Positions 21,863-23,917 of a DNA stretch of 64,000 nucleotides are shown piece by piece. The notes under the pieces are model-generated. The model was given only the letters and a program-made list of their open reading frames with translations, did not search any database and was not told where the DNA came from. The position numbers were made by a program, and so were the translations under genes. The DNA lies in assembly GCA_023920165.1 (NCBI GenBank), contig CP089275.1, positions 186,001 through 250,000 on the forward strand, in the 5' to 3' direction. Every line of letters begins with the position of its first letter. The stretch's first letter is position 1. This DNA comes from Curvularia clavata. Lineage: Eukaryota.

Positions 21863-23917
21863 CTAGTTGCACCCTTCCTTCTCTCGCTCCTCTCTAAGCT
21901 TCTCTCCCCCACGCGTACCCAACCTCGCCATTTTGCCTACCCCTAGACTCCAACTCTTCTCCTTTTCTTTTTTGCCCTCTCTTCCGCTTTCGCTTTGACT
22001 CCCAAACCGTTTGTGCTTGGCTTTTCTGCTGCGCTTGGAACTTGTCTCGAGCGAAGAAGAGCTAGTACGACATTGGTGGCGTGAAGGGGAGGACGGCGAT
22101 GGTGAAGTAGTGGGTAGGGAGAAGATGGAAACAGGTGGTTGGATGCTACGAGCTTCATCTTCTTCTTCTCGGGATTGGGGGGATGCGGAAGGTGTAGGTA
22201 GGAACGGGTTCTGCTGTTCTTCTCTCCTTTCCCGCTGTGAGTGCGAAGGCAGAGGGAGAGGTGGTAGGCTTTTTGAGAAGGGGTCTGTGAGTATGGGCAC
22301 GGCGATTGGGGAGAGCGACGATGAAGATGGAGTGTCGATCCATGGCAGATCGCCGGTTCCGTGGAAGGGGAGTGTAAGGAAGGTACTACTGCTGTTGCTA
22401 CTGCTGCTGGGGGATGGAGAAGGTGGTAGTGAGTAGTCGTATCTAGGACGGAATAAGACCTTTGAAACTGTATCGGGACTTGTGGCGGAGGTTCCTGTGC
22501 TCTGGGCGAGCGAGCGGTTGGGGGTAAGTTGGGGAGTTGCTCGTGTGAGGACCAAAGGCGAGCATGAACGCAGTGTTGAGGCTGGCTTTTGCGGTTGGAG
22601 TAATGGAGTCATTGGGCGCAGGGCGGGGTGGATCTCGACGGTTAGTTCCTCTGGAGGTGCAAAGACTGTGTGCCGGAAAGCTGGGTGCTCGGACAAAGGA
22701 GGTGTTGCGCGCCGGAAGGTGTAGTCGGCTGTTTGCGGTCGGCTGAGGTCGTATTCTGTTACTGATACTTTGACTGGCGTTTTGCTTGGGATAGGAGCGG
22801 AGTGAGACCTTATGTGCGACTTGCTGGCTGACTTTTGGAGTGCGGATGGAGGCAGTGAAAGCGGTGGAATGTCATTCGGGGCTGGCACTGGCGAAAGTTG
22901 CGACTCTGAATGATGAACGATATCTGTCTTGGCGCTTAACCATTCTGGTGTTGTGCATGTTGTTCCTACGTCTTCGTGCAGGCTTGACCTTTCAGAATCA
23001 AAAATGGCAGGAATCTTCTCGAGCGCTTCGCGTAGTGCCTGTGGATCAAACTGCTGCTTGGTCACAAGTCGGATAGTACTTCTCTGTCGCTCGGAATCCG
23101 TCGCAGATAACTGCCTCGAGTGGGAGGCTTTCGATGAGAGAGTAGATGTATCCGAGAGTCCAGGTCCTGCGTCATCATCTAAATGATGCTCTGACGATGG
23201 TTTCATGGAGCAGTCTTGCGACGACTTGCTTTTGAGAGGCTTGACGTATGGCCAAAGTGCCGGGTCCTGCATAATGTCGTGGATCTGGGGCTCCGAAGAC
23301 TGAGTGTCCCATTCTTCTACCCTCTTCGCAACCCATGGGTTCTGCGTGCAATTCAGCTTGGAAAAATATGCGCTGCATGCCTGGGTATTGGACAGTGGTT
23401 GTCCGTAATCGTGCAGATCCTCCAGCACAGTGAGAAACTCCTTGTTAAACTCATCGAGGCTTGCGCACTGATCCACGCGCAAATTCAAAAAGTGGCAAAA
23501 GGCATGATGGTATCCTTCAAACTCAAAGACGCTAAACCGATTGTCCAAGGTTTCCAGCATTTGCTGTGCGTTGCCTTTCGTAGGAGGAAGCGGAGGGCCA
23601 ACTTCGAATACATCTAGCATCACTTCCTCTGCTAGCGACAGGAAAATGTCAAGCTTGACCTCGCGGTCCTGTCGCATCCAGGCTCGTCGCTCTTCCAACA
23701 AGCAAGGCTGTGTATCGTTGATTTCATCTTCGAACCTGGCTAGGGCCGGTCTTTCCCTAGGCATAGGCATGGGAAAGGTGCCGTTACAGTACTTCCACGT
23801 ATCTTTCGTTTCCAGTGCAAACTTGACACTGCGTCGCCAGCGAGAGTACTCAGGTCCCGTGGCATCGAGGCTGAGAAGCGGAACGCCTGGTAGGCGTGGT
23901 GAAGTAGGTAGTTGCAT
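21863..23917 (-). CDS. Ty1/copia Gag-derived protein (684 aa): Gag capsid region plus S/P-rich disordered tail; candidate domesticated gene
   Basis: First ATG at 23917 (the ORF-track start at 23971 is TTG). LDATGPEYSRWRRSVKFALETKDTWKYCNGTFPMP resembles the Copia Gag N-terminal motif (Retrotran_gag_3/DUF4219-type). AWMRQDREVKLDIFLSL, NAQQMLETLDNRF and SLDEFNKEFLTVLEDL...GQPLS...YFSKL resemble the Retrotran_gag_2/UBN2 helices. No pol, LTR or CCHC seen. Confidence 0.75.
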   Translation of the reverse strand: MQLPTSPRLPGVPLLSLDATGPEYSRWRRSVKFALETKDTWKYCNGTFPMPMPRERPALARFEDEINDTQPCLLEERRAWMRQDREVKLDIFLSLAEEVMLDVFEVGPPLPPTKGNAQQMLETLDNRFSVFEFEGYHHAFCHFLNLRVDQCASLDEFNKEFLTVLEDLHDYGQPLSNTQACSAYFSKLNCTQNPWVAKRVEEWDTQSSEPQIHDIMQDPALWPYVKPLKSKSSQDCSMKPSSEHHLDDDAGPGLSDTSTLSSKASHSRQLSATDSERQRSTIRLVTKQQFDPQALREALEKIPAIFDSERSSLHEDVGTTCTTPEWLSAKTDIVHHSESQLSPVPAPNDIPPLSLPPSALQKSASKSHIRSHSAPIPSKTPVKVSVTEYDLSRPQTADYTFRRATPPLSEHPAFRHTVFAPPEELTVEIHPALRPMTPLLQPQKPASTLRSCSPLVLTRATPQLTPNRSLAQSTGTSATSPDTVSKVLFRPRYDYSLPPSPSPSSSSNSSSTFLTLPFHGTGDLPWIDTPSSSSLSPIAVPILTDPFSKSLPPLPLPSHSQRERREEQQNPFLPTPSASPQSREEEDEARSIQPPVSIFSLPTTSPSPSSPSRHQCRTSSSSLETSSKRSRKAKHKRFGSQSESGREGKKEKEKSWSLGVGKMARLGTRGGEKLREEREKEGCN

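Follow-up and report, generated by a model that had tools for sequence, protein, structure and literature searches.

A probable Crtg13 orthologue in Curvularia clavata joins a Ty1/Copia-type capsid domain to a long disordered tail, both under purifying selection

What becomes of a retrotransposon gag gene that persists in a fungal genome with neither pol nor terminal repeats beside it? The question is raised by an open reading frame (ORF) on the minus strand of a 64,000-nucleotide stretch of the Curvularia clavata genome (contig CP089275.1, positions 186,001 to 250,000; hereafter the window, with all coordinates counted from its first base), which encodes a protein of 684 amino acids (aa). We consider it very probable that this ORF is the Curvularia orthologue of Crtg13, a Ty1/Copia gag without pol and long terminal repeats (LTRs) that forms a single host gene older than the radiation of the Pleosporales; this confidence covers identity and origin and does not extend to the scaffold mechanism proposed below. 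In the protein, aa 1-228 form a Copia capsid (CA) domain that is complete with both lobes and is followed by a disordered tail of about 456 residues; both parts are under purifying selection.

A sequence-only reading of the window had described an uninterrupted, intronless ORF of this length, with a Gag-like N-terminus of about 190 residues and a Ser/Pro-rich, low-complexity remainder carrying two HPAxR motifs and a basic end. It had reported no CCHC zinc knuckle, pol, LTRs or excess of TpA dinucleotides, and had interpreted the gene as a Copia capsid gene captured by the host. That interpretation is now backed by profile, structure, synteny and selection, and most of the anatomy on which it was built is borne out. 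The ORF is real: it begins with ATG, is free of introns and internal stops, and contigs from other sequencing runs (X1, X4 and X16, used for collinear cover alone, their RNA nature being a guess) follow its whole length with no joint inside it. The Copia Gag pattern (Y-x-x-W...P-x-P) lies at aa 24-53 as YSRWRRSVKFALETKDTWKYCNGTFPMPMP, and the quoted tail motifs lie where Table 1 places them. A regular expression for the CCHC knuckle finds none in the protein.

The features of an autonomous Ty1/Copia element, namely LTRs and a pol encoding protease (PR), integrase, reverse transcriptase and RNase H (PR-IN-RT-RH) downstream of gag, are absent from the locus. No direct repeats of at least 30 bases, and hence no LTRs, occur between positions 17000 and 29000. 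Pfam detects no pol domain in the ORF, and the stop codon of a convergent aminotransferase gene follows about 480 bp past its own. A tblastn search found no second copy in the window (next match E 0.13). The TpA/ApT ratio is 0.78 in the ORF and 0.72 in the whole window, and the corresponding values of (CpA+TpG)/(ApC+GpT) are 1.21 and 1.25; because these indices resemble those of the whole window, the ORF bears no signature of repeat-induced point mutation (RIP).

Is the N-terminal domain truly a Gag? The Pfam model Retrotran_gag_3 matches the ORF above its cut-off (24.6-26.3 bits vs 24.1; E 7e-6 to 2e-5), whereas Retrotran_gag_2 remains below its own (13.5-16.9 bits vs 27) and the match to DUF4219 is weak. 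In an alignment of the N-terminal domain of the window protein with its relatives from 15 metagenome loci (A3, 16 members), every member matches both Retrotran_gag_3 and Retrotran_gag_2 at E<=1, the best at 3e-5. The A3 profile gives 43 matches at E<=1e-3 among 1.84 billion representative proteins. The orthologue family accounts for 34 of these, at E<=1e-30, and below a wide gap, in the range E 6e-7 to 3e-4, follow Copia Gags and Gag-Pols, including P0147 (1530 aa), a complete Copia Gag-Pol in which Pfam recognizes RVT_2 and rve; the closest Gag-Pol of all lies at E 4e-5. When A3 was compared by hhalign with five Copia Gags, chosen from its own matches but each passing Pfam independently, the alignment extended over 190 columns with a probability of 99.4% (E 9e-22) at a profile-profile identity of about 18%. 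Matches in a sequence search of the PDB with the family profile were weak, the best being Drt2 (E 0.19); two matches to ribosomal protein S6 (E 0.56-0.62) were taken as chance. The sequence-only reading was right about the pattern of the N-terminus; the folded part, aa 1-228, extends somewhat beyond the roughly 190 residues that it gave.

The fold leads to the same family. An AlphaFold2 model of aa 1-239 is all-helical, with a mean predicted local distance difference test score (pLDDT) of 83.2 and a predicted template-modelling score (pTM) of 0.74. Searched against the PDB with Foldseek, it finds the Drosophila Copia capsid (8vvw_A, E 9.5e-4) first, the sole match at E<=0.001 among 183, followed by the Ty1' CA C-terminal domain (CA-CTD), Drt2, the Ty1 p22 CA-CTD, PNMA2 and PEG10. 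VIA-align, run over 48,161 chains, aligns 183 of the 184 residues of 8vvw_A at Z 12.7 and a root-mean-square deviation of 5.0, although helical models commonly reach a Z of up to about 13, a caution that counts against the match. Despite it, the Copia capsid ranks at the top with nearly its whole subunit covered. The only other chains to reach Z>=8 are the second Copia capsid structure (8s41_A, 9.5), the Drt2 CA-CTD (8.3, with 90/90 residues on model residues 132-228) and PNMA2 (8.2). As modelled, the domain is thus a full CA with both an N-terminal domain (NTD) and a CTD.

Comparison with the Drosophila Copia capsid (8vvw and 8s41, 183-184 residues aligned) shows both lobes matched and an equivalent starting point, with model residues 8-232 set against chain residues 3-186. 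The sequence identity is 14-16%. Unlike Copia, the window family has an MPMP loop (aa 46-70), a GPPLPP loop (aa 107-112) and the long disordered tail, and it lacks nucleocapsid (NC), PR and pol. The GPPLPP loop, which 110/120 homologues (the set over which all motif counts were taken) share in a loose form, may be a family-specific docking loop. Still more uniform are HHxFCHF (aa 137-143; 119/120) and ACSAYFSK (aa 180-187; 118/120), which are located on the first two helices of the CTD. The host genes Arc, dArc1, PNMA2 and PEG10 likewise retain the two-lobed CA fold (Z 6.9-8.2), but they are derived from Ty3/gypsy elements, form capsids and in some cases carry NC or PR; the best sequence and structure matches of the window ORF are to Copia and Ty1 rather than to Ty3/gypsy.

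One might still suppose that the domain is an unrelated helical bundle whose capsid likeness arose by convergence, given that Retrotran_gag_2 falls short of the Pfam cut-off and that intermediate Z values are frequent among helical models. We judge this most improbable: Retrotran_gag_3 does exceed its cut-off, the hhalign result spans 190 columns, Copia Gag-Pol is matched directly by the A3 profile, and retroelement capsids, headed by that of Copia, make up almost all of the top structural matches.

The sequence-only reading had known of no characterised equivalent in this fungal group. This claim does not survive, as the family is in print, catalogued with its function uncharacterised, under the name Crtg13. 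A word-indexed search with aa 1-240 returned 123 proteins of 376-1197 aa, with identities of 53-84% over that region in the rows inspected. The named homologues come from about 30 genera, including Exserohilum, Bipolaris, Alternaria, Stemphylium, Pyrenophora, Plenodomus, Parastagonospora, Didymella, Corynespora, Lentithecium and Periconia, all of which we take to be Pleosporales. Two accessions listed as Crtg13 are among them: XP_001803798.1 of Parastagonospora nodorum is homologue P0096 itself (E 1.6e-69, 63% identity), and XP_008028198.1 of Exserohilum turcica belongs to the cluster of homologue P0004 (73% identity). The genomic neighbourhood agrees. In the window the ORF lies between an AAT2-like aspartate aminotransferase gene and, beyond a tRNA-Ser(AGA), a 4'-phosphopantetheinyl transferase (PPTase) gene, as the sequence-only reading had stated. 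The 15 metagenome loci that encode a relative include near or exact duplicates (L001 ~ L006, L004 = L005, L007 = L008, L014 = L015) and so represent about 11 distinct sequences, and two of them (L011, L014) are too short for a verdict on neighbours. The aminotransferase is present in 10 loci, the PPTase in nine, both in six and at least one in 13; the canonical orientation is found in 11 of these 13. The order is that of the published Crtg13 table, PTZ00376 (aminotransferase) - Crtg13 - ACPS (PMC8321522). Since Crtg13 accessions occur among the homologues and the synteny is the same, the ORF is very probably the Crtg13 orthologue.

According to the original account (Wang & Han 2021, Mol Biol Evol 38:3267, PMC8321522), Crtg13 is a Copia gag co-opted before the ancestor of Pleosporales and Mytilinidiales, some 242 Ma ago, and present as a single copy per genome. 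It is counted there as one of three deep fungal gag co-options and one of four derived from Ty1/Copia anywhere. The same source reports a dN/dS of 0.115 (62/63 sequences, 293 sites analysed), no positive and 285 negative sites by FUBAR, M1a/M2a and M8a/M8 comparisons that are not significant, a significant BUSTED result, and expression in Alternaria alternata of 3.68 transcripts per million (TPM); no closely related LTR element was found. As described there, Crtg13 and the window gene share the Retrotran_gag_3/gag_2 architecture, the Pleosporales range and purifying selection, with no difference in kind. The Crtg13 coordinates span 702-900 nt per gene, the Gag part alone; fusions are given for Crtg10 and Crtg14 and none for Crtg13, and the word 'disordered' does not appear in the main text. 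Because the published coordinates and text, to the extent available, cover the Gag part, the present analysis adds to an already described gene family the constrained and motif-bearing tail, the fold match, the predicted dimer of the CTD and the neighbouring tRNA-Ser. Beyond the 2021 catalogue, the literature searched contains no mention of Crtg13 or of four orthologue locus tags (SNOG_13592, PTRG_03082, COCMIDRAFT_99354 and SETTUDRAFT_79397); a jute paper using the phrase 'Retrotransposon Copia-like N-terminal' is unrelated.

Selection can be read from the metagenome loci themselves. The frame is open in 15/15, of which 11 are complete (494-731 codons including the stop) and four run off their contig. 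Pairwise estimates by the Nei-Gojobori method (NG86) had to be restricted: in 109 of 120 pairs the capsid domain had either no defined dS or one exceeding 1.6, and these pairs were dropped; four of the 11 retained were identical or nearly so and uninformative. The seven pairs used give an omega (dN/dS) of 0.064-0.121 in the capsid domain and of 0.210-0.278 in the tail. Their dS (0.85-1.5) is high, and the tail could be aligned less reliably than the capsid domain. The Gag region, for which a dN/dS test had been proposed, is therefore well below 1, and the tail is under purifying selection that is weaker than that on the capsid domain. In contigs X1, X4 and X16, which come from other strains, three nucleotides of the tail are missing in frame at 22168, and 22-47 single bases differ besides over 2-3 kb.

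These observations dispose of the notion that the ORF is a decaying or non-functional remnant, open by chance, which we regard as so improbable as to be negligible. Low expression (the TPM of 3.68 in PMC8321522) and a low-complexity tail are what such a remnant might show. It is already refuted, however, by a frame open at every locus, by omega values well below 1 in both parts of the protein, by synteny conserved across families, and by the lack at this locus of LTRs, pol and a RIP signature. Transcription, another check that the sequence-only reading had named, is indicated both by that published value and by a contig (197 nt) from a root metatranscriptome, X12, which lies on 22931-23125 with no differences; X12 covers 8/30 bins, and the uncovered bins are uninformative. 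Contig comparison drew on X1, X4, X12 and X16, with X9-X11 and X13-X15 set aside for their small shares.

The tail is as described from the letters, Ser/Pro-rich (18% Ser, 12% Pro) and predicted to be disordered. In the full-length AlphaFold model aa 233-684 are disordered, and pLDDT is below 50 for 425 of the 684 residues overall. The sole confident element within it is a helix, PQALREALEKIP (aa 292-300, positions 23018-23044; block pLDDT 78), which in alignment A1 is conserved chiefly among the closest relatives, such as Bipolaris and Exserohilum. Pfam identifies no domain in the tail, and a match to SRP-alpha_N (E 0.32) was set aside as low-complexity noise. What the tail does contain is a series of short motifs that recur in the family. 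HPxxR is found in 93/120 homologues, with at least two occurrences in 53; LPxxG, in the form SLPLQG, in 99; and the pattern [RK]x[LI]Px[LI]P is carried by 84, mostly as RPLPPLP and at an earlier point in the tail than in the window protein. A Ser-rich S..SHSR patch is shared by 73/120, RxRSxSP by 59 and a C-terminal [KR]E[IM][IV] end by 76. Towards the C-terminus an invariant Trp (W656) sits in a basic, K/R-rich SW motif, and the last 75 residues of the ORF protein include 21 Lys and Arg.

How might a capsid domain without a transposon be employed? A two-copy complex prediction, which used no alignment, scored 0.55 where the best of three controls reached 0.01, with 73% or more of the contacts agreeing between runs and a partner pLDDT of at least 78. 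In a microbial calibration this mark was reached by 21/30 solved one-chain pairs and 0/23 single chains; in a eukaryotic one, by 17/29 solved pairs, 1/7 of those lacking an older solved relative and 0/30 single chains. The predicted interface is symmetric and consists of aa 131-145, 173-189 and 200-204, all in the CTD. It comprises 24 residues, F133, Y136, H137, F140, C141, L144, S182 and F185 among them, and 16 of the 24 are invariant or nearly so, against a background of 44% in the capsid domain (hypergeometric p 0.015). An invariant cluster of His and Cys residues (H137, H138, C141, H142, H147, C181 and C190) lies mostly in or beside this interface; it was considered as a candidate zinc site, and the predicted dimer contact offers an alternative reason for its conservation.

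Our proposal is that the CA domain, no longer serving a transposon, would act as a self-association module. The CTD helices that span aa 131-145 and aa 177-189 would hold at least two copies together, bringing at least two of the long tails next to each other. Each tail would present candidate docking motifs: a class-I PxxP ligand of the SH3 type, several copies of HPxLRP, SLPLQG, numerous Ser and Ser-Pro positions and, within its basic end, an RKRSWS-like motif. The whole could then serve cellular partners as a multivalent scaffold or adaptor regulated by phosphorylation. We hold this reading of capsid and tails as a multivalent scaffold tentatively, at somewhat less than even chances.

Several points weigh against it, in addition to the caution on helical models and the high dS already mentioned. 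The scaffold reading is a best guess built on anatomy. The predicted dimer, which expresses likeness rather than binding, may echo solved Ty1/Copia CA dimers. The window protein itself lacks strict forms of RPLPPLP, RxRSxSP, QEITxHAS and the C-terminal KEII, and the assignment of tail motifs to SH3-type, MYND-type (PxLxP) and basophilic-kinase classes follows general consensus patterns and is offered as a lead only. Furthermore, conservation is as strong in the NTD as in the CTD; a simple dimerisation role therefore leaves the conservation of the NTD unexplained, whereas a role in a lattice or in ligand binding would fit.

Such a lattice brings to mind a particle-forming carrier similar to Arc or PEG10, in which the two-lobed CA would assemble into a lattice or closed capsid and package RNA or protein, the tails lying inside or outside. 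Both lobes are kept and highly conserved, 183/184 residues of a Copia capsid subunit from an assembled shell align, and the capsid domains of PNMA2, dArc1, Arc and PEG10 come next among the structural matches; the basic C-terminal stretch, with its 21 Lys and Arg, could bind nucleic acid. CCHC nucleocapsid knuckles are present in Copia and absent from Ty1. A zinc knuckle occurs in 0/120 homologues here, a disordered tail of 456 residues per subunit fits poorly into a shell of T=1-9, and the in silico prediction covered a dimer. On balance a carrier seems quite unlikely. A long shot, too, is the joint proposition of an assembly-competent capsid, as a lattice or closed particle, whose tails recruit cargo, or of tRNA-Ser(AGA) as an ancient integration footprint.

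Yeast offers another precedent. Drt2 and Ty1 p22/p18 (9rxy, 7nli) are likewise Gag products of the fungal Ty1/Copia superfamily, domesticated or self-encoded, and they share the CTD fold (Z 8.3, 90/90 residues); the predicted self-association of Crtg13 also runs through the CTD. By analogy, the window protein could be a restriction factor, a domesticated capsid that co-assembles with active Copia Gag and poisons its lattice. In favour of this are the superposition of its CTD on the CA-CTDs of Drt2 and Ty1 p22 (Foldseek probability 0.96-1.0), the choice of Drt2 as best, if weak, PDB sequence match, the predicted dimer interface on the CTD, the precedent of Drt2 as a Gag of the Ty1 family that restricts after domestication (PMC10951436) and the significant BUSTED result for Crtg13. 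Yet Drt2 and p22/p18 consist of the CTD only, are young, and stand close to the active subfamily that they have been shown to restrict (PMC10951436, PMC12530519), whereas Crtg13 has a full CA and a constrained tail of 456 residues, is about 242 Myr old and has no close element. In yeast, restriction by the CA-CTD is highly subfamily-specific and set by three interface residues, according to PMC12530519. Close kinship to an active element subfamily is not seen here: the nearest Gag-Pol stands at E 4e-5 and about 18% profile identity, and PMC8321522 likewise reports no close Copia relative. An omega of about 0.1 sustained over some 242 Myr, non-significant M1a/M2a and M8a/M8 tests and the lack of positive FUBAR sites in that source are the opposite of an arms race. 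Because there is no close element, because the yeast precedent is subfamily-specific and because the gene shows conservation rather than an arms race, we disfavour restriction and rate it unlikely.

Table 1. Features of the Crtg13 locus in the window, with strand and basis of assignment
Feature	Position	Strand	Basis
Whole ORF of the probable Crtg13 orthologue, 684 aa + stop	21863..23917	-	ORF call, collinear contigs
Copia-type capsid (CA) domain, aa 1-228; NTD ~aa 8-130, CTD ~aa 131-228	23234..23917	-	Pfam, hhalign, AlphaFold2, Foldseek, VIA-align
Disordered Ser/Pro-rich tail, aa 229-684 (~456 aa)	21866..23233	-	pLDDT, composition, omega
GPPLPP loop, aa 107-112, family-specific insertion relative to Copia Gags	23582..23599	-	gap in hhalign alignment
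Predicted symmetric CTD-CTD dimer interface, aa 131-204, including HHxFCHF and ACSAYFSK	23306..23527	-	two-copy prediction
Two HPxxR motifs, HPAFR at aa 411 and HPALR at aa 430	22616..22687	-	motif scan
LPFHG, local form of the SLPLQG motif	22358..22372	-	L516, P517 and G520 invariant in alignment A1
KSLPPLP, class-I SH3-ligand-like, aa 549-555	22253..22273	-	motif scan
Basic C-terminal region, KRSRKAKHKR (aa 628) ... KKEKEKSWS, with invariant W656	21938..22036	-	alignment A1, motif scan
Aspartate aminotransferase gene, AAT2-like, convergent; last exon 20649-21383	19684..21383	+	Pfam Aminotran_1_2, E 3e-56
tRNA-Ser(AGA), divergent, 918 bp upstream of the start codon	24835..24915	+	tRNA call
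4'-Phosphopantetheinyl transferase (ACPS-type), two exon pieces	25069..25703	+	weak split ACPS matches

The neighbours listed in Table 1 are of some interest in their own right. The two exon pieces of the PPTase gene, seemingly split by a short intron, match positions 1-41 and 50-92 of the ACPS profile weakly (E 0.025 and 0.2). A tRNA-Ser(AGA) occupies the equivalent place, 859-1048 bp upstream, in seven of the nine loci scanned (L001, L006, L007, L008, L010, L013 and L015) and is absent from the other two, L005 and L012; in L007 and L008, whose ORFs are identical, the block of tRNA and gene is inverted between the same two neighbours. In yeast, Ty1-like elements integrate upstream of genes transcribed by RNA polymerase III (Pol III). 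By that rule the conserved tRNA may be a relic of Pol III-targeted, Ty1-like integration in the ancestor of the Pleosporales more than 240 Myr ago.

Two observations lie to the side of these results. Between the start of the Crtg13 ORF and the tRNA-Ser, contigs of X4 and of the X12 metatranscriptome carry a plus-strand GT..AG spliced joint at 24527/24608, skipping 80 nt; the transcript is unannotated and may represent either a non-coding RNA or a 5' exon that belongs to the PPTase gene. Separately, residues 520-629 of a homeobox-KN protein of Boeremia exigua (P0152, XP_045996191.1, 1349 aa) weakly match the NTD of the Crtg13 profile (E 3e-4), which could reflect a second capture of a Gag NTD, a merged gene model or chance.

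The Pleosporales include many crop pathogens. The capsid fold that has been kept, the motif-bearing tail that selection has maintained and the predicted dimer interface in which the most conserved residues are found make the function of Crtg13 in these fungi experimentally approachable. Were it to prove assembly-competent, Crtg13 would be a fungal, Copia-derived counterpart of Arc and PNMA2.

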